Of a DNA stretch of 64,000 nucleotides, positions 888 to 62,185 are shown piece after piece; position 1 is the first letter of the stretch, and the number at the start of each line of letters is the position of its first letter. Position numbers and translations under genes: made by a program. The notes below the pieces were generated by a model. The model did not search any database and had not been told where the DNA came from. It was given only the letters and a program-made list of their open reading frames with translations. The DNA is from Leucoraja ocellata (Eukaryota): assembly GCA_036785375.1 (NCBI GenBank), contig JAWMAR010000201.1, positions 248,001 through 312,000 on the forward strand. The letters are read 5' to 3'.

Positions 888-3800
888 CTTTTTCTCAGCA
901 ACCAGTGTGAAGTGGACACCTGATCTGTCCCGATGGACACCTTTTCTCTTCAGGAAAGATGTCAAACTCCTGGACTCACTCAAGGATGGGATTGGTGCAG
1001 TGGAGCAATGTGAGAGAGGACAGAGGGCGACTTCCCTCAGTCTCAGCGCCCTTCCTATCCCGCTGCTTCTGTGCAACTGAAACAATCGAGAGAGATGGAC
1101 AGGAAGTCAGTGTGGGAGGAGGCGAGTTCACAATAGAAGCCACAAAGGGGTGACAGGACTAGCGATATCAAAACAATGGCCAAGAAAACACACCAACACC
1201 TCTACTTCCTTTGAAGGCTTCGGAAGTTCGGCATGTTCCCAACAAAGCTCACCAACCTCCACTGATGCGCCGTAGGGAGCATTTTATCAGGAGGCATCAC
1301 AGCACAGTTTGGAAACATCTTCATCCAAGATGGCAAGAAATTACAGAGAACCCTCCAGTTTTCCGGCACCTCACCCGTGCCTAACAATGATGCATACATC
1401 TCACCCAGGGCTACTGCAATTTCTTCTCTAGCTTACTAGTGTTCTTGGATCTACCTGATCAGGCCCTGAAGATTTATTTACCATCATACATTTTAACATG
1501 TGAACATGTATATGAAATGTAATATGTCAACAAGTATTAGGTACTGAGGTACCACAGTATTGTACTTAATTCTAACAAAAATAAAAAAATAAAAAATTTA
1601 AAATACATTTTAACATGTCAAGCACCTTCTGTAATTACCAAGACATCCGCATTTTCGAAGTTAATTCGGCTTCATGTCTTTCTCTATTTGTAAGAACGAG
1701 AGGATAAATATTAATTGAGGACCTCATCCATCTCTTCTTCCTCCAAACTTAAATGTCCAGTTTGGTCTTCGGTATTATCTCATTTGTTCCTCTTTTTCAC
1801 AGTGCACATTTGGACCAGTTTCTTGATCTTTGTAATAAAAAGGAACTACAGATGCTGGCTTATACCAAAACACTGGAGTAACTCAGTGGGTCAGGCCTTA
1901 CTCCAAAATTTTGTGTGTATATCTCTTGTTATCCAGAGTTCTCTACTCCTGCCAGCCTCACGCCATCTCCTTCACATCAAGCATCCCCTCCCCTCCCCAT
2001 CATACTCTGCCCTAAGCTTTTTGTTCGGGCCATGGCCACATGGTCTCTAATATCCTGCTGTGGGTGGGAATTAGATGGGGGATTCGTCTACACAGAGACA
2101 AGAGAGAACATTGACGATGTCATGCAAAGAACAACCTGCTGGAAAACAGCGGGTTGAGCAGCATCTGCAGAAGGAGATGCTTCAGCATATTTGGTCCATG
2201 CCTCGCGTTAGCGTCAAGGGTCAGTTACCAAATGTATTTTTCCCGCAGATGGACATAAAATGCTGGAGTAACTCAGCGGGATAGAAGGAATGGGTGACGT
2301 TTTGAGTGGAGACCCTTCTGAAACGTCACCCATTCCTTCTATCCAGAGACGCTACGTGTCCCGCTGAATTACTCCAGCATTTTGATTCTATCTTCGGTAT
2401 AAACGGGTAAATCTACAGTTCCTTCCGCCACGTCTCTTCTCGCAGCCGCCAGACTAGTGACCCACGGCATCATTCAACGAGTTCGCACGCATCCTGGCCT
2501 GGGCGCATTTGAATTGGTCGGTGCTGAGAGTGACGGAGAGCGGGGGTGCGAAAAGGAGAGCGACCGCACCCCCCTTTATTTCCAGAGTTAAAAAAAAAGA
2601 AGTCCCAACTGCCTCCCCTTTAGGCGGTGGGCAGGGACGGGCTGCGGGGCGATGATGCCGGTGTTGGCCGAGGAGCGCTGACCTTCCTTCCTCCTCGCCA
2701 CCTCCTATGCATCTTCTCTCTCTTGTACGACCCCCCCCCCCCCTTTATCCTGGGACCCATCCTATCCACCCCACACTGATCCCAATTCCCCATCTATTCA
2801 GTCCTTACTGCCACCCCCGTGCTTCCCTCCCGAACTACCCCCCCCCCCCCATCTATTCATCCTGCACTGATCTCCCTATCCACCTCGCATTGATTCTCCT
2901 GCTTTCCCCCCATCCCCCCCATCCATCCTACACTGGTCCCCCAATTCATCCTGTATTGACCCCCTTCCCATCCATCCTGCACTGTCTTCTCCATTCATCC
3001 TGCACAGACCCCCCGATCCACACTGTACTGACCCACCCCCATTCATCCTGTACTGAGCCCCCCATTCATCCTGCACGGACCCCCCCCCCCCCCCTCCCAT
3101 CCATCCTGTACTGATTACCCCCATCTATCCCGTACTCCCCCACTGACATCCCCGCATTCTCCCCTCACATGTTTACCTACTCAACCAACACACACTAATA
3201 GGGGGGTTGCACGTAAGGTCACTGGGTCATAGGGCTTGACGCACGGAGCCACTCAATCCACCTGGAGGACATCCGGAACTTCCGGTATATGTTATTAATG
3301 TTATAAAACGCGTACTTTCCTACCTGTTAAAAACTGCCAAAATGTTGAATCTTTGCGCTGAAAAAAATTGTGGAAGTCGGGGTAAGTGTGAGAGACATGT
3401 ACCCAACCTCAGAATTCCAAATGTGAAACGAAATTAAGGTAAAGAGAAGCGAGAGCTGAAGGGACAACAGCAGCTAAAGTGCTTGGTAAACATTGGCTGT
3501 GCAGATATCAGAATTGAAAATATTGGGAATATTGAGAAGGCAATCGTTGCAGAATGGATGGATTGAGGCAGGAGAATAGGGAGGTTTCACGGCAGTCGAG
3601 TCACGACCCATGACCCGTACTGTTGCTACACTACTCCAAATGGAGTACAGGCGATGAACTGCAGGTAAGCACTTACCATTGTTTCCAACGTAGTGGGCCC
3701 GTTAAAACCCGCTGAAATTGTCAATTTTTGCGCTGTAAATAATTATGGAAATCGGGATAAGCGTGTGAGACATTTAGCCTACTTCAGAATTCCAAAAGTG

Positions 3801-4056
3801 AGGAGAAATGACGGTAGATAGAAGCGAGATCTGAAGGGACAACAGCCAAAGTGCTTAGCGAACATTGGCCGTTTGCTCACTGTATTTCATCAACAATAAG
3901 GCATTATTTGTGTTTTGTCTTGAATCCTTTGGTATCTAAAAAGTCTCAGAAGTGATAAATCTGGCTAAATCTTGCTTCAGAGGCATTTTCATTTTGTATG
4001 TAAAAACCCACTTGAGAAGCATGGGCGATTTAAAAAATTTACAGCCAGATTTATCA

Positions 4057-5601
4057 CTGGCAACGGGAGCAGCAACGTCGGAAGGGGGAGAATTAGCAGA
4101 GGGGACAGAGGCTGCAGCACCCCACGGTGCACAAGTAACCACTCCAGCAGCGTCCCAGGAAGCACCAGTTGCCACGCCAGCTGCATCCCAGGGTGCACAA
4201 GTAACCACGCCAGCAGCGTCACGAGAAGCAGCATCAGGTTGCCCCAAGGAGCCGCTCAAGGGGCAGGTTGGTGAAGGGTCATGGGGGGGGGGGGGGGTGA
4301 ATCAGTGCGGGATGGATAGATGGGGGGGTTGAGAAGGCAATCGTTGCAGAATGGATGGATTGAGGCAGGAGAATAGGGAGGTTTCATGGCAGTCGAGTCA
4401 CGACCCATGACCCATACTGTTGCTACACTACTCCAAATGGAGTACAGGCGATGAACTGCAGGTAAGCACACCATTGTTTCCAGCGTAGTGGGCCCGTTAA
4501 AACCCGCTGAAATTGTCAATTTTTGCGCTGTAAATAATTATGGAAATCGGGATAAGCGTGTGAGACATTTAGCCTACTTCAGAATTCCGAAAGTGAGGAG
4601 AAATGACGGTAGATAGAAGCGAGATCTGAAGGGACAACAGTCAAAGTGCTTAGCGAACATTGGCCGTTTGCTCACTGCATTTCATCAACTAAGGCATTAT
4701 TTGTGTTTTTTGTTGATCCCTTTGGCATCTAAAAAGTTTCAGAAGTGATAAATCTGGCTGTAAATTTTTTAAATCGCCCATGCTTCTCAAGTGGGTTTTT
4801 ACATACAAAATGAAAATGCCTCTGAAACAAGATTTAGCCAGATTTATCACTTCTGAAACTTTTTAGATGCCAAAGGGATCAACAAAAAACACAAATAATG
4901 CCTTAGTTGATGAAATGCAGTGAGCAAACGGCCAATGTTCGCTAAGCACTTTGACTGTTGTCCCTTCAGATCTCGCTTCTATCTACCGTCATTTCTCCTC
5001 ACTTTCGGAATTCTGAAGTAGGCTAAATGTCTCACACGCTTATCCCGATTTCCATAATTATTTACAGCACAAAAATTGACAATTTCAGCGGGTTTTAACG
5101 GGCCCACTACGCTGGAAACAATGGTAAGTGCTTACCTGCAGTTCATCGCCTGTACTCCATTTGGAGTAGTGTAGCAACAGTATGGGTCATGGGTCGTGAC
5201 TCGACTGCCATGAAACCTCCCTAATCTCCTGCCTCAATCCATCCATTCTGCAACGATTGCCTTCTCAACCCCCCCATCTATCCATCCCGCACTGATTCAC
5301 CCACCCCCCCCTGACCCTTCACCAACCTGCCCCTTGAGCGGCTCCTTGGGGCAACCTGATGCTGCTTCTCGTGACGCTGCTGGCGTGGTTACTTGTGCAC
5401 CCTTGATGCAGCTGGCGTGGCAACTGGTGCTTCCTGGGACGCTGCTGGAGTGGTTACTTGTGCACCCTGGGTTGTTGCTGGTGAGGCTGCCGTTTCTTCC
5501 TGGAGTGCTGCTGGAGTGGTTACTTGTGCACCGTGGGGTGCTGCAGCCTCTGTCCCCTCTGCTAATTCTCCCCCTTCCGACGTTGCTGCTCCCGTTGCCA
5601 G
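4057..5601. repeat. Long inverted repeat (arms 4057-4759 and 4836-5601, ~76-bp spacer)
   Basis: Arms are near-perfect reverse complements (right arm has one extra 60-bp unit); a third direct copy of part of the arm lies at ~3533-3966. Confidence 0.9.
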
Positions 5602-6090
5602 CCCCTGCTGCTTGTCGCCCCGGCCGCTAGAGCCGGACAGCAGCCAACGGACCAGGCTGCCAGTGCCCTTGAAACTGGTGGCCGCCGCTCCTCGCATAAA
5701 CTCGCACTTCTGCCGATACATGACCAGCGAGTCAGGCCTGAGCTGCATCTTGGAGCTGGAGTGACGCACAATGTCAGGCGGGAGCCCCAGCTGCCCACTC
5801 TGCTGGGGGCTGCCGGAGGCCAGGTAAGTCTTCATGCTGCTGCTCACCCCGCTGCCGCTGCCTTCCTCGGAGGCAGAGCTGCTCCAAACCATTGGGCTCC
5901 ACTTCGTCACCTGGCTCCTCAAGTGCTTGGCCTTGTTGGCAGCCAGTCTCTCCACAGTGCTCTGCCGACCCCGCCTGTCCCCCTCCATTTGTCTACAGGG
6001 GTAGCCGGATCCCTTGGACATGAGCCTAAGTGCCAGAGAGATGCTCGCCTCGGGCGACATGCTTGCAGTGGGCGCGATCTCGCTCAGCAT
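5600..6090 (-). pseudogene. FAM110C: FAM110C-like N-terminal coding fragment inside a hAT-derived element; part of a 233-aa chimeric ORF (5389-6090)
   Basis: LALRLMSKGSGY...STVERLAANKAKHLRSQ and LRPDSLVMYRQKCEFMRG...SLVRWL match FAM110 family motifs as I recall them (SAVERLEADKAKYVKS; RPDSLIIYRQKCEFVRG). The C-terminal FAM110 domain is absent. Confidence 0.75.
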
Positions 6091-8799
6091 CTTGCTTTGA
6101 TCCAGCCAAAGAGGACAAACACGTTTTCACATCCGCAAAGAAGTAAAGACCAGGACTTCCATGAGCAATGACAGGCTGTCTGTATTTGCCTTAATCAACA
6201 TTCACTATGACTTTGCTCATAACTTGGAGAAAGTCGTGACTAGGTTTGCGCAGTTACATTCCTGGAAAATAGACTGGAAAACACGATTTATGGCTAAATG
6301 GCAATATATGCAGGCGTGCCACGAGTGTCCATCACCTGTATCACTACGCCAGGACTTCCATGAGCAATGACAAGCTGTCTGCACTCGCCTTAATGCACAT
6401 TCACTATGACTTTGCTCATGACTTGGATAAAGTGATGAGTAGGTTTGCACAGTTACATTCTCGGAAAACTGAACTATTTCATGTCAAAGTTGATGTGATG
6501 TGAAGTTGTTAGGTCAGGAGTATCATTAAAGGTGCACTGCACACACTAACACAGTAACAGTAACAGGCAATCAAATCATCACACAAAACATTTTCTAAAA
6601 AAAGGTTTTCTTTAAATTTGGTGCAAAAAGCTCCAAAATAAGGCTCAGAATGCACCAGAGAGCATCTAAAACTCCAAAGCTTTCAGGGCCCCTGGAACCC
6701 GGACGTGAGGGGCTTCCCGCTTGTGATGTGCGCTGCGTGCACATTATTTCACATAAATCTTTTGGATTCCTGTCATGCCACCCCCCCCCTTTTTGAAAAG
6801 CTTCGTACGGGCCTGACATACCATTCGCTTTCTTCACTGCCTGCTTCACCTGCATGCCTACTTTCAATGACTGGTGTACCACGACACCCAGGTCTCGTTG
6901 CATCTCCCTTTTCTGTAATCGGCCACCAGGTGGGGCAGGTTGACAGAGCAATTAATAAAGTGGATAGGATGATGGACAATAACAGATACATTAATATAAC
7001 AATTATGCCACATAATATAATACATTGTTGGGATCATAAGAATAGAATTGTATATGGTTGTATGTTACATGTATATGGTTACAGTCATCATACATTAGGA
7101 AGGAAATTAAGGCTTTAATGTGTGCTCCTCGTGGCATGTCGTTGTTCCCTTGGTATGGGAGCTGCACACGTGCAACAGAGTCTAGATCATAGTCCCTTCT
7201 ACGATCTTTGGTCTAGATGTTCAGTTGAATTTGTACGAGAGGCAGAAAGAAATTGCATTATTTAGCCTGCCCGATCTCTCCCACTTGATAGCTCAGATAG
7301 ACAAGTCATGGCAACGAGTCGACTATCTGAGCTGTAGGGAGAGAGCGGGCAGGCTAAATAATATTTTCATTACACGACAGAAAGTAATACATTTTTTCTC
7401 ACCTTTCGTTTTTCGTGGGGAACCTGAAGAAAGATTGGTCGGGTCGCATACCATGGCGATTTGAGCAGTACGCTGCGCTTGTAGATGACAGAAGCCGGTT
7501 ACAGAAATGGCACTGAAGATTACCCATCCGCTACTACGGCTTTTCTCTGGTATCTTTGTCCACCACCCTCTCATGCAGTGTGGTCCAGTCTCCAACCACC
7601 CTTTGGGTGAAACAATCTTTTCCTCAGATCGCTCTTATTCCTCACCCTAACCTTATGCCCCCTTACTGTGAACACATCTATTGTGGGGTTAGGGAACATA
7701 CTGATGAATCTCCTCTGCACTCTCACCAGTGCAATGAAATCCCTCCTTTAGTGCGGTGACCCGAACTGTATATAATACGCTCACTGAATTCTAATCAATG
7801 TGTTACAAAGTTGTACCATAACCTCTCTGTTCTGTATTAAATGTCCCAGCTGATGAACCCACACACAGGATGGTGTGCCTCCCTGGTGCCAGAGTTGGGG
7901 ATGTGTCTGAATGCAACAGAACATTCGCAAGGTGAGGGGTGGGGTGGGCGTCGGCGGTGAGTGGCCTGAAGTTGTTGACAGGGAGAGAAACGCTGAGATC
8001 CTGTGGACCAGAAAAGATTTACTAGGATGTTGCCAAGATAATGCGGACTGAGTTACAGGGAAAGGTTGGCCAGGCTAGGACTTTATTCATTGAACGGACA
8101 AGACTAATCTTATCGAGGTATCTAAAATCATGAATAACATAGATAGGATGATTGCACATAGTCTTTTTCCTGGTGTTGGGGAATTAAGAACTTGAGGGCA
8201 GAGCTCTAAGATGAGAGGGGAAAGATTGAACAGGAAACTGGGGGGCATATTTTTCACATAGAAAGAGGGGGTGGAATATATATATAATACTGTATATGGA
8301 ATGCTGCCAGGGGTAGGTACTTCGTAACATTTAAGACTTTTGGACAGGTACGTGGAATGGTTTAGATGGATGTCAAAGTTTGGCAAATGGTAACAGCTAA
8401 GTTAGGATGGATGAGTTGGGCCGAAGAGCCTATCTTCTTGGAGACGCAAGGAACTGCTGAATCTGGTTTATTATAAAGACGTACAGTGCAAATGGCAAAG
8501 GGCCCGGATGAATGTCTGGACAAGTGATATTTCAGGTTAACACCTTTCTTAAGATTGATTGTAATAGTGAATTGGGAGGGGGGGGGGGGGGGGGGGTTAG
8601 GCTGTTGGGTGGAGATATAGATAGTTAGAAGAGAGGTGGGGGCAGGACAAACTTTGGGAAGTGATGGGTTGGTGCAGGTGAGGTGGGATTTGATTGGCAG
8701 TTGCATAATTCTCCGACATTTCTGCCATCTTCAATGTGATCCCACCACCAGTCTCATCTTCCCATCCCCACCCCTTTCCACCTTCTGCAGAGACAACTC

Positions 8800-19328: not shown

Positions 19329-21822
19329 CTAGACTAATTGGGACCTGTTGGGTCCCATGTTCACACAGGAAGGCTGGTCCCCCGACGCAATATTCCACCT
19401 CTCCACCAATTCCAATATTGGTGGCCAGTGGGGGGCTTTATGGAGAACTGGTATGGGTTCTTGGGTTGGCAGCTCAGTCCCTCAAGCCTGATGTGCTGGC
19501 AGCTCACTTGCGGCTGGTGGGCTGGCAGTTGACTCATGGCTATTCCTTGAAATTCCATTTCAAGCAGGCTGCAAGGCCACCAAATTCAAGTGCAGTTTCC
19601 TGCCACTTCAAGCAGGGTACAAGGCCACTGAATTTAAGTGCAGTTTCATACCATTTCAAGCAGGGTGCAAGGCCACCAAATTCAAGTGCAGTCTTATACC
19701 ACTTTCAGCAGGGTGCAAGGCTGCCAACTTCAAGTGCAGCTTCATAACATTTCAAGCAGGGTGTAAGGTCACCAAATTCAAATGCAGCTTCATACAATTT
19801 CATGCAGGGTGCTACGCCACCACATTCAAATGCAGTTTCATACCATTTCAATCAGGGTGAAACCACCATAAAACCACACAAAACACCAAACTCACAGTTC
19901 AGTAGACATTCAGTGTGTTCAGTTGATTCACAGCTCAGACAGAGTTGTGACCTCTCCCTCCCCCATAATGCAGAGACTGAGCCACACCCTCACTTTCAGG
20001 TTTTATAACCCCTCCCCCTCCCTCTGGAAAAGGTGTGGCCTTCATGGCATGATTGACAGGAGAGTGATTCTCAACTTTTTAAACAGTAATAACACTTTTA
20101 TTTTTCATTGATGGGAAGAATCCTCTGCACCTGCTGAGCGGAGGGGGACTGAGTAAGATGGCCAAAAATCACAGCCGTAAGTGATAGCGTTTTATCTAAA
20201 ATCAATATACAGTGCAAACAGGATGTTACCCAAAGCACTCAAATCACCATTTGCAGTAGTGCCTTTTAACTTCAAGCAAAAGCACCCAAACCACAATCTG
20301 CAGCAGTGCCTTTTAACTTAAACCCAAAGCACCCAAACCACCATTTAAAGTAGTGCCTTTTAACTTCAAGCCAAAGCACCCAAACCACCATTTGCAGTAG
20401 TGCCTTTTAACTGCAAGCCAAAGCACCCAAACCACCATTTGTAGTAGTGCCTTTTAACTTCAAACCAACCATATTTTCATTTTCAAAGCACATTAAGGGG
20501 ACTCACAGTTGAGTAGACATGTGTTTAGTGTTATTCAAAGCTCAGAGAGACATGACCCTCTGGCTTCTTCCATCTTGCAGAGGCTGAGTGATGCACACCA
20601 CTTCCGGGTTTTATAGTCCCTCCCCCCCTCCCACCAGCAGGGGCAGCAGAGAGAATAGCAATTTTTTTTTAAACATTGATATCTCTCTGATTTTTAATCG
20701 ATGGGAAAATCCCTCCGGTCCCGGAAGGGGGCTCTGAGCTTGGTGGCCAAAAATGACGGCCGTAGTGGCTGTGTTCTCTCGGAAATCACAGCACAGCAAG
20801 TCAAAAGCGGTCAAGATCAGACTTTTAGTAATATACTAGACCAAGTGCAGACCCGTTGGGTCTGCTCCCCCAATGGTGTGATCCCCCAACCCAATATTCC
20901 ACCATGCACCCGTCTCCTCCAATGGAACTGAAGCCGTTCTCAAAAGTAAGATTCCAGCACTGCCCTGCCTCTTTAAAAAAAAATCCAATGGCACCTCCCC
21001 TGCCTGCTGCAGCAGTGAAAAGTTCAGTCTTCCTGTCTTTCAACTTTGTTTCGAAGTGTGTTGGAAGCTGACATGTAAATGGAGAAGCCTGTTTATTTTT
21101 GAAATACTTGGGGGTGGGTGGGTGGGGGTGAAGGATTTGATTAAAAACGTGAACTTCAACACGACAAAATGAAATGAGGAGCCGATACTTAGAAAGAAAA
21201 GCGAAATCTGCACCGAAATGGAAAATATCTCGGAGAGTGAGCGTCTGGATTGGGCGTGGCAATGAATCAAAGGAAGAAATGCAGCCGGCAGCCGTACATG
21301 CAAATGAATCCATTCCGATTGGACATCTGCGAGCATCAGCCATTCCGATTGGACATCTGCGAGTATCGGGCACGAATCGAAAGGCAGGAAGGGCGCCGGT
21401 CGGCAGTCGGTCGGATGGGGCCAGAGTTTTAAAAGCATACTAGACCAAGTGCAGACCCGTTGGGTCTGCTCCCCCAATGGTGTGATTCCCCCAACCCAAT
21501 ATTCCACCATGCACCCGTCTCCTCCAACGGAACTGAAGCCGTTCCCAAATGTAAGATTCCAGCACTCCCCTGCCTCCCTCAGCAGTGGATTGAAAAAAAA
21601 ATCCAATTGCACCTCCCCTGCTTGCTGCAGCAGTTCAAATTGCAATACCAATTGGCCCTCCCCCTCCTGTTGCAGCACTTGCTGTGATATCCCATTGAGG
21701 TGAAAAGTTCAGAGTGTTCCTGTCTTGCAACTTTGTTTTGAAGTGTGTTGGAAGCTGATAGGAAGGAGTAGCGAATCAAAAGGAAGAAAGGCAGCCGGAC
21801 GGACGGACGGCAGGCGGCAGCC
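19329..21822 (-). mobile_element. Tandem non-autonomous Helitron units with internal 48-bp and 47-bp minisatellites
   Basis: Three 3' termini (hairpin GCAGACCC-AAC-GGGTCTGC or GGGACC-CAACA-GGTCCC followed by CTAG-T) at ~19329, ~20836 and ~21440; minisatellites at 19555-19860 and 20228-20465. Confidence 0.75.
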
Positions 21823-33589: not shown

Positions 33590-36530
33590 CTTCTAGTATA
33601 TATTAAAAGTCTGTGTCCGACCAGCCGACTTTCTGCCTGACTTGTGACTGCCAGCCTTTGATTCCTTGCTACGTCAACACCAGACGTAGAATCGCCGAGA
33701 TGTTTTCCATTTCAGTAGAGATTTCACTTTTCATTTCAAGTATCAACTCCTGATTAAATTTTGTCGTGTTTATGTACACATTTTTAATAAAATCCTTCTC
33801 CCCCTCTCCCCTAAATTTTTGTTTTTTTAAATGACTTCTCACCCATAGAATGTTGGTGAACGTTCAATCGTGTGATGTCACAATGCCCAATGCTCACAGA
33901 TGTCCAATCGGAATAGATCCATTTACATATGCCTTTGCAACAGCCCCAGCCCCTCCCCCCAGCCGGAGTCGAAGCGCGTCATCACGTGTGTGGGAATAGA
34001 GAAAGAGGATTGGGGGTGAAAGGGAATGAGGAACAGATGGACTGTCCCAACCCCTCCTCCTTCCACTCTCCCTCCCCACTATTTCCCCTCTCTCCCCCAC
34101 CCCTCTCTCCCTCCCGCCACACTCTTACCCCTCCCTCCCCTGCTCCATCCCTCCCACACACCTCTCTCCCCATCCCTCTCTCCCTCTCCCCATCCCTCTC
34201 TCCCCATCTCCATCTCCTCACCCCTCTCCTCCCCCTTCTCCCACCCCATCCCCCTTTCCCCACCCCCCTTCCCTCTCCCCACCCTCCCCCACCCCTTTTC
34301 CTCTCTCCCACCCCTCTCCCCCTCCATCCACACTCTCACCCCTCCCTCCCCTACCCCGCATCTCCCTCCTCCCTCCCCATCCCTCCCCCTCTCCACCCCT
34401 CTCTCCTCCACCTCTATCAACCCCCGCCCCTACCCTCCCCTCTCCCACCCCTTTCCCTCTCTCCCCCACCCCTTTCCCCCTCCCCACTCTTCCCCCTCCA
34501 TCCACACTTTTCCCCCTCTACCCCATCTCCTTGCCTCCCTCCCCCACACCTCTCTCCCCCTACCCTCGCCTCCCCCACCCCTCTCCATCTCCGTCTCCTC
34601 ACCCCTCTCCCCATCCCTCTCACCCACCCCCTTCCCTCTCTCCCCTTGCCCCTTCCCCCTACCCCCCTGTTCCTCTTCCACCCGCTACCCCTCCCGCCCC
34701 ACTCTTCCACTTCTCTCCCCCTTACCCCACCACTCCCCCTCCCTTCCCTCTCTCCCCACCCCTTCCCTCTCTCCCCCACCACTTCCCCTCTGTCCCTTCC
34801 ACCACTCCCCCTGCCCCTCTTCCACAACTCCCGCTCCCTCCCTACTTCCACTTCTCTCCCCCCCTCCCTCCCCAATCTTTCCCCTCTCTCCCCCTCCCAT
34901 CCCACTCTTCCCCCGCCCCCTCCACACTCTTCCCACTCTCTCCCCTTCCCCTTCTCCCTCCTCCCTCGCTCCCCTTCCCCCACCCCACTTTCATCCTCCC
35001 ATCTCCTCCCAACCCCCTTCCCCTCTCTCTTGCACCACTCCCCGCTACAGCTCTCCCACCCCCCCTACCCCTCCCCCCACCATCGTGTGATGTCACAATG
35101 CCCAATGCTCACAGGTGTCCAATCGGAATGGATCATTTACATATGCCTTTGCAGCAGCCCCAGCACCAGCCCCCCACCCCACCCCCGCAACCTGTGTCGA
35201 AGCTCAGCATCACGTGTGTGGGAATAGAGAAAGAGGATTGGGGGTGGTAGGGAATGGGGAACAGATGGACTGTCCCCACCCCTCCCCCTTCCACTTCCTC
35301 CGCACTATTTCCCCTCTCTCCCCCACCCCTCTTCCCCTCCCTCCACACTCTTACCCCTCCCTCCCCTACCCCATCCCTCCCCCACACCTCTCTCCCCATC
35401 CCTCTCTCCCCCTCTCATCACCCCTCTCTATCTCCCTCTCCTCCCACCCCCATCCCCCTTCCCTCCCCTACCCCTTTCCCTCTCTCTCCCACCCCCTCCC
35501 TCCACACTCTTACCCCTCCCTCCCCTACCCCATCTCTCTCCTCCCCCACACCTCTCCCCCTCCCCATCCCTCTCTCCACCTCCCTCCTCACCCCTCCCAT
35601 CCCACTCTCCCCCACCCCCCTTCCTTCCCTCCCCCACCCCTTCCCTCTCTCCCCCACCCCGCCCCTTTCCCTCTCTGTCCCACCCCTTTTCCCCTCCCCA
35701 CTCTTCCCCCTCCATCCACACTTCCCCCTCTACCCCCTACCCCATCTCCCTCCTTGCCTCCCTCCCCCTCCCCCACACCTCTCTCCCCCCTCTCTCCTCG
35801 CCTCCCCCATCCCACTTTCCTCCCCCTCTCCATCTCCCTCTCCTCACCCCTCTCCCTCTCCTCACCCATCTCCCTCTCCCATCCCTCTCTCCTCAGCCCC
35901 CTTCCCTCCCGCCCCCTTCCCCTACCCCTCGTCCACCACTCCCCTACCCTCCCTACCCCACTCTTCCACTTCTCTCCCCCTACCCACCCCTCTCCCTCTC
36001 CCTCCCCCACCCCTCTCCCTCCCCTTCCCTCTCTCCCCCACCCCCTTCCCTCTGTCCCTCTTCCACCATTGCCCCTGTCACTCTTCCACCACCCCCTACC
36101 CCTCTCCCCTCCCTCCGCACTCTTCCACTTCTCTCCTAACCTCCCTCTCCCACTCTCCCTCCCCACTATTTCCCCTCTCTCCCCCTACACCTCCTCCCTC
36201 TCCCACCCCATCTCCCCCCTCCCCCACACATCTCTCCCCCTCCCCATCCCTCTCTCCTCCCCCTCTCCATCTCCCTCTCTTCACCCCCTCCATCCCTCTC
36301 TCCCCCACCCCCTTCCCTCTCTCCCCTCGCCCCCTACCCCTCCTTCCCCACTCTTCCGCTTTTCTCCCCCTTACCCCACCACTCTCCCTCCCCACCCCCC
36401 TCTCTCCCCCCCTCCCCCTCCCTTCCCTCTCTCCCCCTCCCTTCCCTCTCTTCCCCCTCCCTTCCCTCTCTCCCCCACCCCTTCCCACACCCCCCTGTCC
36501 CTCTTCCACCACTCGCGCTGCCCCTCTTTA
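33590..36530 (+). repeat. Helitron-like 5' segment followed by an expanded C/T-rich low-complexity repeat
   Basis: 33880-33930 and 35085-35145 match the Helitron internal motif (TGTCCAATCGGAATGGAT); ~2.5 kb of almost pure polypyrimidine. Confidence 0.6.
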
Positions 36531-38660
36531 GATATTTAGATCAAACCACATGCCATTTCTCTGCCCATTTCTGTAGTTGATCTATATTCTGCTGTAATCT
36601 TTGACACCTTCCTCACTGTCTGCAACTCCACCAATATAAATATATATAATATTAAACACCCAATAGTGATCCAACACAGATCCTTTTGGAACTCCATTGG
36701 ACACAGACCTCCAGCCAGAATAACACTCTTCCCCCACAACCTTCTGCCTTCTATGAGTGAGCCAGTTCTGAATCTGAATGTCCAAGTCACTGTGGATCCC
36801 ATGAATCTTAAATCAGGCCCTTCATCCCAGTGCTACGAAACTACCTGGTGCGAGGAACTGTCTCTGCTGTGTTGTGCAATTCTGTTATTAGACAGCTCAC
36901 TTGGAGTTGGGGTTCATTACTGTTATCCATCAGAGCTGATAGTCTGAATGTCCAGAGCCCGGTAGAAGTCGGAAGCTGCTGTCAGGGTGCAATGAGCTGG
37001 TTCTGATAGGGAGGGTGTTTGGTCAAATATTGCATCAAATGGTGGCAGGAAGTGGTTCAGGCTCAGAACACTTTGCTGAACAAGAAGTATGTGAAGTGAA
37101 AAATAGAGCTGGACTGCGGATGTAAAGCGAGAGTAGTGGAATGGGTGGAGGGCGGGGGTTGTTGAAGGGAGGGAGGGAGAGAGATAGCGAGGCACAAATG
37201 GGAATACAATGTTAATTACAGAGAGGTTTGTAGAGATGTCAGGAACCAGCAGAAAGTGACAGAACTGGAGAAAGAGGCACAGAAATAGGCTTCCCCCTAC
37301 CCCTCGTCCACCACTCCCCTACCCTCCCTCCCCACTCTTCCACTTCTCTCCCCCTACCCCACCCCTCTCCCTCTCCCTCCCCCACCCCTCTCCCCTCCCT
37401 TCCCTCTCTCCCCCACCCCTTCCCCTCTGTCCCTCTTCCACCATTGCCCCTGTCACTCTTCCACCACCCCCTACCCCTCTCCCCTCCCTCCGCACTCTTC
37501 CACTTCTCTCCTAACCTCCCTCTCCCACTCTCCCTCCCCACTATTTCCCCTCTCTCCCCCTACACCTCCTCCCTCTCCCACCCCATCTCCCCCCTCCCCC
37601 ACACATCTCTCCCCCTCCCCACCCCTCTCTCCTCCCCCTCTCCATCTCCCTCTCTTCACCCCCTCCATCCCTCTCTCCCCCACCCCCTTCCCTCTCTCCC
37701 CTCGCCCCCTACCCCTCCTTCCCCACTCTTCCGCTTTTCTCCCCCTTACCCCACCACTCTCCCTCCCCCTCCCTTCCCTCTCTCCCCCTCCCTTCCCTCT
37801 CTCCCCCCTCCCTTCCCTCTCTTCCCCCTCCCTTCCCTCTCTCCCCCACCCCTTCCCACACCCCCCTGTCCCTCTTCCACCACTCGCGCTGCCCCTCTTT
37901 AGATATTTAGATCAAACCACATGCCATTTCTCTGCCCATTTCTGTAGTTGATCTATATTCTGCTGTAATCTTTGACACCTTCCTCACTGTCTGCAACTCC
38001 ACCAATATAAATATATATAATATTAAACACCCAATAGTGATCCAACACAGATCCTTTTGGAACTCCATTGGACACAGACCTCCAGCCAGAATAACACTCT
38101 TCCCCCACAACCTTCTGCCTTCTATGAGTGAGCCAGTTCTGAATCTGAATGTCCAAGTCACTGTGGATCCCATGAATCTTAAATCAGGCCCTTCATCCCA
38201 GTGCTACGAAACTACCTGGTGCGAGGAACTGTCTCTGCTGTGTTGTGCAATTCTGTTATTAGACAGCTCACTTGGAGTTGGGGTTCATTACTGTTATCCA
38301 TCAGAGCTGATAGTCTGAATGTCCAGAGCCCGGTAGAAGTCGGAAGCTGCTGTCAGGGTGCAATGAGCTGGTTCTGATAGGGAGGGTGTTTGGTCAAATA
38401 TTGCATCAAATGGTGGCAGGAAGTGGTTCAGGCTCAGAACACTTTGCTGAACAAGAAGTATGTGAAGTGAAAAATAGAGCTGGACTGCGGATGTAAAGCG
38501 AGAGTAGTGGAATGGGTGGAGGGCGGGGGTTGTTGAAGGGAGGGAGGGAGAGAGATAGCGAGGCACAAATGGGAATACAATGTTAATTACAGAGAGGTTT
38601 GTAGAGATGTCAGGAACCAGCAGAAAGTGACAGAACTGGAGAAAGAGGCACAGAAATAGG
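35915..38660 (+). repeat. Near-identical ~1371-bp tandem duplication
   Basis: Identical ORFs offset by 1371 (36536/37907, 36666/38037); junction near 37289. Confidence 0.9.
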
Positions 38661-40330: not shown

Positions 40331-40573
40331 GCTCGTGAACCAACTCAAATTACATGCCACCACCTGTACGGGCCCCGCACAGCAGCAACAGTGGCGATGG
40401 CGGCTCCACTTCCTTCTGCACCATGCCCACCCTCATACCTCAAACCCTCCTGAATGCCGAGGCTGGGAGGAGGGAAAGAAGGGGGAGGCCCCCTTCCGCC
40501 GTCTGAAGCACCTGCACCGCTCGGCCCCGCACCTTTCTGTTTGCTGGCGAGGAGGGGAGGCTGTGGCGAGGAG

Positions 40574-40689
40574 GTCCCAACTGCCCCCCCTTTTGGTGGT
40601 GGGCAGGGACGGGCTGCGGGGCGATGATGCCAGTGTTGTCCGAGGAGCGTTGACCTTCCTTCCTCCTCACCACCTCCTCTGCCCCATCC

Positions 40690-40734
<45 letters not shown>

Positions 40735-41523
40735 ACCCCCTCCCCCTTTATCTTGGGACCCATCCTCACCACCCCGTACTGATCCTAATTCCCCATCTAT
40801 TCAGCTTCACTGCCATCCCCTGTGCTCCCCTTCCCATCTACCCCCCCCCCCCATCTATTCATCCTGCACTGATCTCCCTATCCACCTCGCATTGGTTCTC
40901 CTGCCACCCCCCCCCCCCCCCCATTCATCCATCCTCCACTGGTCCCCCAATTCATCCTGTACTGACCCCCTTCCCATCCATCCTGCATTGTCGTCCCCCA
41001 TTCATCCTGCACATATCCCCCATTCATCCTGCACAGACCCCTGATCCACACTGAACTGACCCACTCCCATTCATCATGTACTGAGCCCCCCATTCTGCAC
41101 TCGTCTTAATGCACATTCACTATGACTTTGCCCATGATATGGACAAAGTGGTGAGTAGGTTTGCACAGTTACATTCTCGGAAAACGGAACTATTTCATGT
41201 TAAGTTGATGTGATGTGAAGTTGTTAGGTCAGGAGGACCATTAAAGGTGCACTGCACACACCAACACAGTCTAACAGTAACAGGCAATCAAATCAACACA
41301 CAAGACATTTTCTAAAAAAAGTTTTTCTTTAAATTTAGTGCAAAAAGCTCCAAAATAAAGCTCAGAATGCACCACAGAGCATCTAAAACCTCTTAAGCGG
41401 GCCCTGGAACTGGGACGTGAGGGGCTTCCCGCTTGTGATGTGCGCTGCGTGCACATTATTTCACATAACATTTTTGGAATCCTGTCATGCCACCCCCTTT
41501 TTGGAAAACTTTGTACGGGCCTG
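40574..41523 (+). mobile_element. Shorter copy of the same hAT-derived family, without the FAM110 or fold-back cargo
   Basis: Shares the C-rich 5' segment, the hATC remnant (41095-41190) and the GTACGGGCCTG end with 2602-6815. Confidence 0.7.
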
Positions 41524-59823: not shown

Positions 59824-62185
59824 CAGGGTTCAAAATTAACGGTTGCCCGGGTGCCATTGACCACTCAAAGCACCGCCGGGCAACTAAACACCGAGTCATT
59901 TTGCATCGGCGTGCGGGAGGGTTTGTATTGAACATGCTGTTAGCGGGTTTGCAGGCAGCGGCCGCTATCAGGGAGGAGGAGGAGATGATGGAGCCGCTGC
60001 TGCTGCTGTGCGGGGCCCGTCATTCGCTCCAACACTTCTGAAGCAGCTGCATTAAAGATACTATAGCTATAGGACTTTGAGCTGCACGCTCGGCCCCGTT
60101 GCCTGGCGGTGACGAGGAGTTCCCAACGGCCAAGGCAGTCCGAGGAGCGCTGACCTTCCTCCTGCCCACCTCGCCCCCCTTCTCTCTCTCTCTCTCGTAC
60201 GCCCCCTCCACCCCCCCCCCCCCCCCCTTATCCTGGGACCCCTCCTCTACATCCCGCACTGATTCCCATTCCCGCCTCTATTCAGTCCTCACTGACATCC
60301 CCTGTGCTCATCTCCCCCCCAATCTATTCATCCTGCGCTGATCACCCTATCCACCTCGCATTAATTCTGCTGCCGCCATACACCCCCCCCCCCATCCATC
60401 CTACACTTGTACCCCAATTCACCCTGCATTTACCCCTTTCCCATCCATCCTGTAACTCCACCTGTACTGATTCCCCCATCCATCCTGTACTAATCCACGC
60501 ATTCATCCCTTACTGACCCACCCTCCATTTACCCTGCACCTTCCCCCATTCATCATGTAGCGATTCCCCATTCATCCTGCACAGACCCTCAGATCCACAC
60601 TGTACTGACCCCCCCCCCCCATTCATCCTGCGCTGATCTCCCCCCCCCCATCCATCCTGTACTGATCCTCCCATTCAAGAAGAATGGGGGGAATAGTCTG
60701 AAGAAGGGTCTCGACCCGAAACGTTGCCGATTTCCTTCGCTCTTTAGATGCTGCCTCACCCGCTGAGTTTCTCCAGCACTTTTGTCTACCCCCATCCATC
60801 CTGTAGTGACCCCCCCCCATTCAACACCACTGACATCCCCCATGCTCTCCCCTCACAATTTTACCTACTCCAACCAAGACGTACTAATTCACCTGCCTCA
60901 ATCCATCCATTCTGCACCGACTGCCTTCTAACACCCCCCCCCCCCCACCCCCAATTTATCCACCCCGCACTGATTCACACACATACCCTTCCCTGACCCT
61001 ATTGTCCTGGAAATGTCTGCCGAGCGCATATTGACTATGTTTGATAACGGAATGCAATCAAATGTGTTTTAATTCCCAATGTTATTATTTGTTTTAATCT
61101 ATAAAGATGGATTAATTAAATTGTGAACACGTGAAACATTAAAACCGCAGTGTTCGATTGACACTGCTACTGTTAACACGTTATTACAGAATTCATTTTA
61201 ACGGCAAATCAATGCTCTTAATATGGAGTATCAGTACTGTAGTTATTTAATGAGCAACATTCACAACTATACGTACGCATATATGTTACCATGGTCCAGG
61301 ATTTATTGACACAGGTTGATCATACGCTGAATAATCCAACCACATTTTTGTTTGGAAGTGGAAAGAACTAATAGAAATTGCATTAATTGCAATGTGTAAA
61401 AAGAGTTGAGGAAGGATGTCAACAAAATAGAGGGAGTACAGAGGGGATTTACTAGAATGTTGCCTGGGTTTCAGCAACTAAGTTACAGAGAAAGGTTGAA
61501 CAAGTTAGGGCTTTATTCTTTGGAGCGGCGAAGGTTAAGGGGGGACTTGATAGAGGTCTTTAAAATGATGAGAGGGATAGACAGAGTTGACGTGGATAAG
61601 CTTTTCCCACTGAGAGTAGGGAAGATTCAAACAAGGGGACATGACTTGAGAATTAAGGGACAGAAGTTTAGGGGTAACATGAGGGGGAACTTCTCAGAGA
61701 GTGGTGGCTGTGTGGAATGAGCTTCCAGTGAAGGTGGTGGAGGCAGGTTCGTTTTTATCATTTAAAAATAAATTGGATAGTTATATGGACGGGAAAGGTA
61801 TGGAGGGTTATGGTCTGAACGCAGGTGTATGGGACTAGGGGAGAATACGTGTTCGGCACGGACTAGAAGGGTCAAGATGGCCTGTTTCCGTGCTGTAATT
61901 GTTATATGGTTATATGGTCTTATAATTTAGCTGCATGTCATTGTGGGATATATCATGTCTTGATTGGTGAATGTTTAGTTTGTGACTTTATTTGAAGCAG
62001 AAATAATATGGGAATGCTTCATTGAATATAATTCCGACTGGTAACTACGCGCTTCGTCCGAGCATTTTATCGCATGCGTCATGCAAGCCATCTTAAATGA
62101 CCACCTAAACTGTCATTTGGTAACCTAAAAAGCTGCCAAGGTTGCCCGGCTGGCAACAGAGAAAAAAGGTTAAGCGAGAGCCCTG
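59824..62185 (+). mobile_element. Non-autonomous hAT-like DNA transposon with 5-bp TSD, containing a nested CR1 fragment
   Basis: Ends CAGGGTTCAAAATTAAC / GTTAAGCGAGAGCCCTG, flanked by AACAG on both sides; a reverse-complement fragment of its 5' end is at ~23595-23687. Confidence 0.7.
61405..61920 (+). mobile_element. CR1 LINE 3' fragment
   Basis: RGFTRMLPG...LYSLERRRLRGDLIEVFK. Confidence 0.9.

Follow-up and report, generated by a model that had tools for sequence, protein, structure and literature searches.

The window, a stretch of 64,000 nucleotides from the skate Leucoraja ocellata, carries an ATG-initiated minus-strand open reading frame (ORF) of 233 aa beside remnants of a hAT transposase (Table 1). 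A reading made from the letters alone (the sequence-only reading) had reported this ORF and noted FAM110 motifs in it, and a Pfam search placed both on firmer ground with a FAM110_N match above the cut-off (E 1.1e-7). The same reading had described an in-frame fusion. The frame is in fact kept by a 10-bp deletion near 5903 that is offset by a 1-bp insertion near 5883, an insertion missing from the contigs of four further runs. A stop directly past a small deletion near 5404 terminates the ORF, whose 233 codons represent a copy of FAM110C that is frameshifted and truncated. Using blastn against the parental cargo, the window segment aligned at 82.8% over 5376-6150 and at 74.9% over 5316-5544, and the cargo boundary at 6150 is common to nearly all copies in the genome that keep that end.

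Table 1. Positions in the window of the FAM110C-bearing element, its flank and its sister copy
Feature	Position	Strand	Remarks
Left subterminal remnant	2542-2598	+	82% to L065:5570-5625; TIR and TSD unrecognisable
C-rich internal segment	2599-3199	+	In cargo-bearing copies L027, L034, L154 and L155 at 70-81%; sister copy 40571-41095 at 79%
Inverted duplicate of cargo part	4057-4277	+	Inside local rearrangement; 4057-4151 100% to 5601-5507
Captured FAM110C segment	5316-6150	-	~55 nt of 5' flank, N-terminal half and linker; C-terminal domain absent
Thr/Pro/Ala-coding 33-bp tandem repeat	5371-5544	-	TRF; native batoid FAM110C linker
Decayed FAM110C pseudogene ORF	5389-6090	-	233 codons; compensating frameshifts near 5883-5903; premature end
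Cargo-transposase junction, 2-nt microhomology	6140-6163	+	Parent, element and transposase sequences compared
First hAT transposase C-terminal remnant	6149-6304	+	Opposite strand to FAM110C ORF
Second, tandem transposase remnant	6349-6468	+	88% to 6150-6269
Right subterminal region	6469-6815	+	Ends in 15-bp right TIR, 6801-6815
Right flank, mid-part of common LINE-like repeat (by its ORF)	6816-6928	+	89.7% to uninterrupted window copy
Sister copy without FAM110C	40571-41523	+	41094-41523 90% to 6378-6815; right TIR identical; no cargo match

The hAT dimerisation remnant that had been proposed to adjoin the ORF is present from 6149; of the Pfam dimerisation region it covers the final ~20 aa, followed by the C-terminal tail. 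Contigs of four runs have a loose end at 6815, the end of the element. Neither the left terminal inverted repeat (TIR) nor the target-site duplication (TSD) of the window copy was found in the window or in 10 kb upstream, and the other half of the LINE-like flank repeat does not adjoin the left side of the element. Since the left TIR and TSD are missing, membership of the window copy in the family described below rests on its right end, its junction and its internal sequence. A near-palindrome spans 4114-5478 (inverted self-match 94.7%), and a ~500-bp non-cargo segment occurs three times, in both orientations and at 96-97% identity, at 3323-5268 within the element span. These features may represent a real rearrangement or an assembly artefact.

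A sister copy lacking FAM110C had been placed at 40574-41523, and this description held: the copy shares the right end and has no cargo match. It joins the C-rich internal segment straight to the transposase remnant. Because this segment occurs in cargo-bearing copies too, the sister has likely lost its cargo, and is likely an internal-deletion derivative rather than an empty ancestor.

Elsewhere in the window, a second repeat family with other termini (hAT-like by eye) lies at 59824-62000, and pieces of this family are nested in the FAM110C-bearing copies L023, L025, L027, L033 and L037. Two tandem arrays, both well conserved, have units of 48 bp and 47 bp and lie at 19555-19859 and 20230-20468, and ~3.8 kb of strongly skewed, C/T-rich low-complexity sequence occupies 34085-37872.

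The parental gene and its linker

We identified an intact parental FAM110C on contig C43, where two ORFs of 461 and 470 aa from the start codon encode both FAM110 domains. These ORFs sit in a block of 30 kb or more that is present twice, in inverted orientation and with 96-99% identity, and likely represents either two haplotypes or a recent duplication; the two block copies (C43:444001-474000 and 1650301-1680200) differ in the number of linker repeats, giving the 461 and 470 aa forms. The C43 gene has FAM110C as its best match, and TMEM18, linkage to which we take to be a marker of the FAM110C locus, lies ~0.5 Mb from one of the two ORFs. The parental protein is 85% identical to FAM110C of Amblyraja radiata and 80% identical to that of Rhinoraja. 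There was no TIR match in the 9.9-kb parental locus (L031), and its likeness to the transposon copies stops at the cargo ends. In total the genome contains seven intact FAM110 host genes, with three of four genes present twice.

The sequence-only reading had interpreted the ORF as an in-frame fusion of a FAM110C fragment to TTPAA repeats. However, Thr/Pro/Ala units are present in the parental gene and in FAM110C of all six named batoids that we aligned (Amblyraja, Rhinoraja, Hypanus, Mobula, Narcine and Hemitrygon), and there is therefore no FAM110-TTPAA chimera; the repeats are the gene's own linker. These units were absent from the two sharks and the chimaera in the alignment. The batoid FAM110C linker is a coding tandem repeat of variable length, in proteins of 367-491 aa.

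Copies, termini and transposase of the carrier

A genome search with window positions 5600-6110 gave at least 40 scored matches of 270 candidates, the 39 others being 81-91% identical to the query. FAM110_C matches numbered 144 among the 150 scored of 249 candidates and FAM110_N matches 71, with seven host genes in each set. The junction between cargo and transposase, at which parental gene and transposase share 2 nt of microhomology, matched 74 sites on 53 contigs with at most two mismatches, and a control gave none. Counts of this kind may be inflated up to ~twofold, because host genes are duplicated and copies occur in pairs, and the true number of insertions is therefore probably dozens to about 100.

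We examined 81 loci. Cargo was present in 79/81, and in 23/81 both ends were called, with host sequence lying between the two ends of one TIR element; by blastn, cargo was absent in two of 40 fetched junction loci. Of the 23 cargo-bearing elements delimited on both sides, 12 were flanked by exact 5-bp TSDs and four by 5-bp TSDs with one mismatch, these 16 comprising 12 different sequences, while seven had no good TSD and none had a TSD of 8 bp. Many copies with one junction, both termini and distinct TSDs support the proposal, made from the window alone, that a hAT element had captured a host gene. The copies share element flanks, unlike an independent retrocopy that never co-occurs with hAT ends.

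The proposed size of the cargo, a fragment of ~160 aa, did not survive comparison across the family. Measured against the parent, the family cargo extends 55 nt ahead of the ATG and 3 nt past the stop, covering the whole coding sequence (1.47 kb). The stop codon is retained in one sub-family, where it lies ~110 nt from the left end; in a larger sub-family the cargo is cut 197 nt earlier and the native left end is longer. The GC content of the cargo is 0.64, compared with 0.45 and 0.46 in the flanks of the parental gene. No parental sequence was found adjacent to either cargo end in the 153 loci searched.

The termini are those of a single TIR family. In 15 of the first 20 larger loci the right end consists of one motif followed by unrelated flanks. 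The TIRs are 15 bp long and imperfect, with 12/15 positions matching between the ends, and the left TIR has 549 exact matches in the genome (control 0). From the first 60 listed of these 549 sites, seven pairs of which share flanks, we obtained 41 elements whose two ends lay no more than 8 kb apart. Exact 5-bp TSDs flanked 28 of them, 5-bp TSDs with one mismatch six and exact 6-bp TSDs two, and five had none. An 8-bp TSD was seen in 0/41, and a search that took the mirror image of the right TIR for the left end gave no 8-bp TSDs either. A canonical hAT of the Ac/hobo/Tam3 type was rejected on these counts, together with the 0/23 among cargo-bearing elements. The assignment to hAT in the sequence-only reading is consistent with the transposase remnant and the TIRs, but not with the usual 8-bp TSD. 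The carrier is a hAT-family element, hAT5-like by its 5-bp TSD.

An HMMER search placed the transposase remnant at residues 588-636 of a 638-aa protein with DUF4371 and Dimer_Tnp_hAT domains. The remnant of a sister copy is 63% identical to this 638-aa hAT transposase (E 4.4e-13); the remnant alone gave no Pfam match, and a word-index search returned no longer relatives of it. The nearest named proteins are annotated as '52 kDa repressor of the inhibitor of the protein kinase-like' in a sea urchin and molluscs. Locus L182 is a transposase-bearing deletion copy with the same two TIRs, a 4/5 TSD and larger transposase pieces. We found no intact autonomous partner. The genome's nearest transposase relatives (50-70% to the query) are all broken, and a stricter first look in the 1.5 kb around the 20 best transposase loci turned up no left TIR. 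Open frames of up to 360 aa that overlie the remnant run antisense to the cargo and were rejected as transposase. Two open 1220-aa frames (L214 and L215; C339:518814-520640 and 682718-684544) were also rejected as the autonomous partner, as no TIR was seen nearby and their hAT-like region shares just 28% identity with the query transposase. They are possibly a domesticated hAT gene.

FAM110C was carried by four of 60 members of the TIR family by blastn, with one further short remnant found by eye, which makes the cargo-bearing elements a minor part of a larger family. By eye, most other members hold GC-rich tandem repeats and LINE/SINE pieces. In the commonest sub-family with these TIRs (L108-L167; ~30-35 of 60), the GC-rich tandem repeats are combined with a fixed LINE/SINE mosaic, and the whole was mobilised as one unit with 5-bp TSDs. 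A decayed transposase-bearing member (L183-L194; contigs C887, C956, C1168, C1224, C1374, C641, C1822 and C1495) has its halves ~20-30 kb apart. The large block around it recurs on many small contigs with 97-99% identity, the result of a recent amplification, either segmental or tandem.

Decay and age of the copies

The family consensus has an intact frame, and differs from the parent at 27/576 nt in the N-terminal part and 7/426 nt in the C-terminal part. For measures of divergence and selection, duplicates were dropped from the copy set by hand. Mean divergence from the consensus was 6.4% in 25 N-terminal copies and 7.7% in 34 C-terminal copies (range 4-10%), and a frameshift or stop was present in 21/25 N-halves and 21/34 C-halves. 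Read from the start site, 0/60 copies reach the conserved C-terminal motif or the protein end.

Raw Nei-Gojobori omega values of 0.63-0.80 gave an appearance of selection on the copies, which vanished once base and CpG context were modelled: private substitutions then had relative omega of 0.99 and 0.96. Substitutions found in at least three copies showed no significant synonymous excess (p 0.17 and 0.49). We also rejected the two longest surviving frames as conserved, since L248 has 29 non-synonymous and 11 synonymous changes together with frameshifts, and L040 has 29 and 12. The FAM110C copies decay neutrally and show no sign of function, in agreement with the earlier suspicion that the window copy was decaying. 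As a protein gene, the window copy has no function detectable in the data.

Contigs from runs with four organism labels, one of which may be the source species, tile the cargo and the right end, and four contigs of run X15 bridge the cargo-transposase junction. A run guessed to be RNA has short junction contigs, none of which spans 31 nt on both sides.

A 311-aa 'FAM110C-like' protein of Amblyraja (XP_032885421) leaves FAM110C sequence at the residue where the larger sub-family is truncated, and shares the substitutions of that sub-family. In a tree of 11 rows with the linker removed, it groups with the family consensus and the window ORF with support 88/88, which is below the star level of the tool. 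The shared truncation point suggests that FAM110C was likely captured before the split from Amblyraja. In skates, genes annotated as 'FAM110C-like' can be transposon cargo.

Origin of the cargo and known systems

The FAM110C copies have common termini, distinct 5-bp TSDs and one junction; their parent is intact and without element ends, and they decay neutrally. We consider, with a probability of about 0.88, that the locus is a decayed and rearranged non-autonomous hAT-family transposon with 5-bp TSDs that carries FAM110C, likely acquired in one capture by template switching during repair and then spread to dozens of sites in skate genomes. A double-strand gap in the element would have been filled from the GC-rich FAM110C exon, by gap repair or fork switching through the 2-nt microhomology, and the captured exon would have replaced most of the transposase gene. 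A related transposase may then have moved the loaded element in trans, and later internal deletions would have produced the sub-families that keep the N-half, the C-half or neither.

Entry through RNA, as a FAM110C retrocopy or an mRNA-templated patch in the hAT, would have led to the same spread from a different first step. We regard this as unlikely, although the cargo does hug the ORF at both ends, and the sub-family with the C-terminus has ~7 consecutive A on the sense strand from 3 nt after the stop, a run that both the parent and the native left end lack. The genome is also LINE-rich, and the donor coding sequence is one uninterrupted ORF, so intron loss does not discriminate. However, a 3'UTR lies next to the stop in none of the 153 loci searched, the junctions gave no sign of a TSD flanking the cargo, and polyadenylation 3 nt past a stop codon would be unusual. 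The sub-family with the A-run has the shorter left end, and its A-run junction is therefore likely a secondary deletion at which the A-run is filler, rather than poly(A). A processed pseudogene made by LINE retrotransposition was rejected on the lack of adjacent 3'UTR, the presence of ~7 A only and the common element flanks. The cargo moreover coincides with the GC-rich block, as in the multicopy Pack-TIRs described in excerpts of PMC8277862.

We have similarly low expectations of a founding element that carried a complete, working FAM110C, obtained via an RNA template or through selection that trimmed it to the ORF, and of which a copy may still be in use in some skate lineage (the Amblyraja FAM110C-like protein being one candidate). 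The intact consensus frame, the fit of both cargo ends to the ORF and the A-run after the stop favour such a founder, while the lack of significant synonymous excess and the failure of all 60 copies to reach the protein end speak against it. If true, a vertebrate DNA transposon would once have travelled with an expressed, centrosome-associated host gene.

It is very improbable that the 233-aa ORF is a functional new chimeric gene with a FAM110 N-terminus and new repeats. Its 233 codons are open from the original start codon, but the repeats are native and the frame survives through compensating indels alone. Relative to the family consensus, the N-terminal part has 24 non-synonymous and 13 synonymous changes, the ORF forms the longest branch of the 11-row tree, and the C-terminal domain is lost. 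Open frames of this size arise among neutral copies, since neither a stop nor a frameshift interrupts 4/25 N-halves.

Segmental duplication or assembly redundancy in place of transposition is hardly credible and is already refuted as the main cause by distinct TSDs (12 sequences among 16 cargo elements) and unrelated flanks: host FAM110 genes present twice, several copy pairs with the same flanks and TSDs, and one cargo-less copy amplified in the 97-99% identical block on many small contigs do point to redundancy, but this roughly doubles counts and cannot make a family whose likeness stops sharply at its termini and whose copies lie 4-10% from the consensus.

The skate FAM110C family behaves as a multicopy Pack-TIR, an element of known kind, here unusually large and prolific for a vertebrate: host cargo lies between TIRs (23/81), the parent is element-free and the TSDs differ; capture at the DNA level is probable. 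Capture and spread of host sequence by cut-and-paste transposons are well known in plants and fungi, and gene capture on this scale appears rare in vertebrates. With a whole coding sequence, dozens of dateable copies and a known parent, the family is a clean vertebrate test case for capture, and provides a neutral clock and shared-insertion markers for skate phylogeny. No published report of this FAM110C-carrying family was found in the literature searched, and Repbase and Dfam, which were outside that search, may already hold the element.

Plant Pack elements usually carry short fragments of several genes, whereas the skate family has one identified donor gene. What the two have in common, going by excerpts on Pack-MULE and Pack-TYPE elements (PMC8903248), is a non-autonomous TIR element that carries and amplifies coding DNA. 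Like hAT5, as excerpted from PMC12730594, the skate carrier combines a hAT-type transposase remnant with a 5-bp TSD, and is a candidate hAT5 element; unlike the skate carrier, hAT5 is not mentioned with host-gene cargo in that excerpt.

In an animal survey of Pack-TIRs, as excerpted (PMC8277862), four multicopy cases, all of them short, were reported among 281, and the median cargo was 224 bp. Because the survey aimed at young cases (identity of 90% or more and a unique top hit), its count is not a fair base rate for old families. Pack-hAT-N8_XT of Xenopus tropicalis carries 291 bp of 5'UTR in three places, and Ssk-FB4 of Drosophila is young and under positive selection. The words 'skate' and 'shark' are absent from the main text of this survey. 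The skate family resembles these multicopy cases in its host cargo within a TIR element, unlinked parent, distinct TSDs, short microhomology and GC-rich cargo. It differs in that its cargo is a 1.47-kb whole coding sequence and its copies are dozens in number, old and neutral.

The closest match in scale is the hAT-borne histone H3 of fungi, on the excerpted account of Pseudocercospora fijiensis (PMC6710886). There, a complete hAT captured the housekeeping gene and hundreds of copies were killed by RIP, in contrast to the non-autonomous carrier and ordinary neutral decay of the skate family. In both systems a hAT captured a host gene, many copies are dead while the original is intact, and related events are found in several related genomes.
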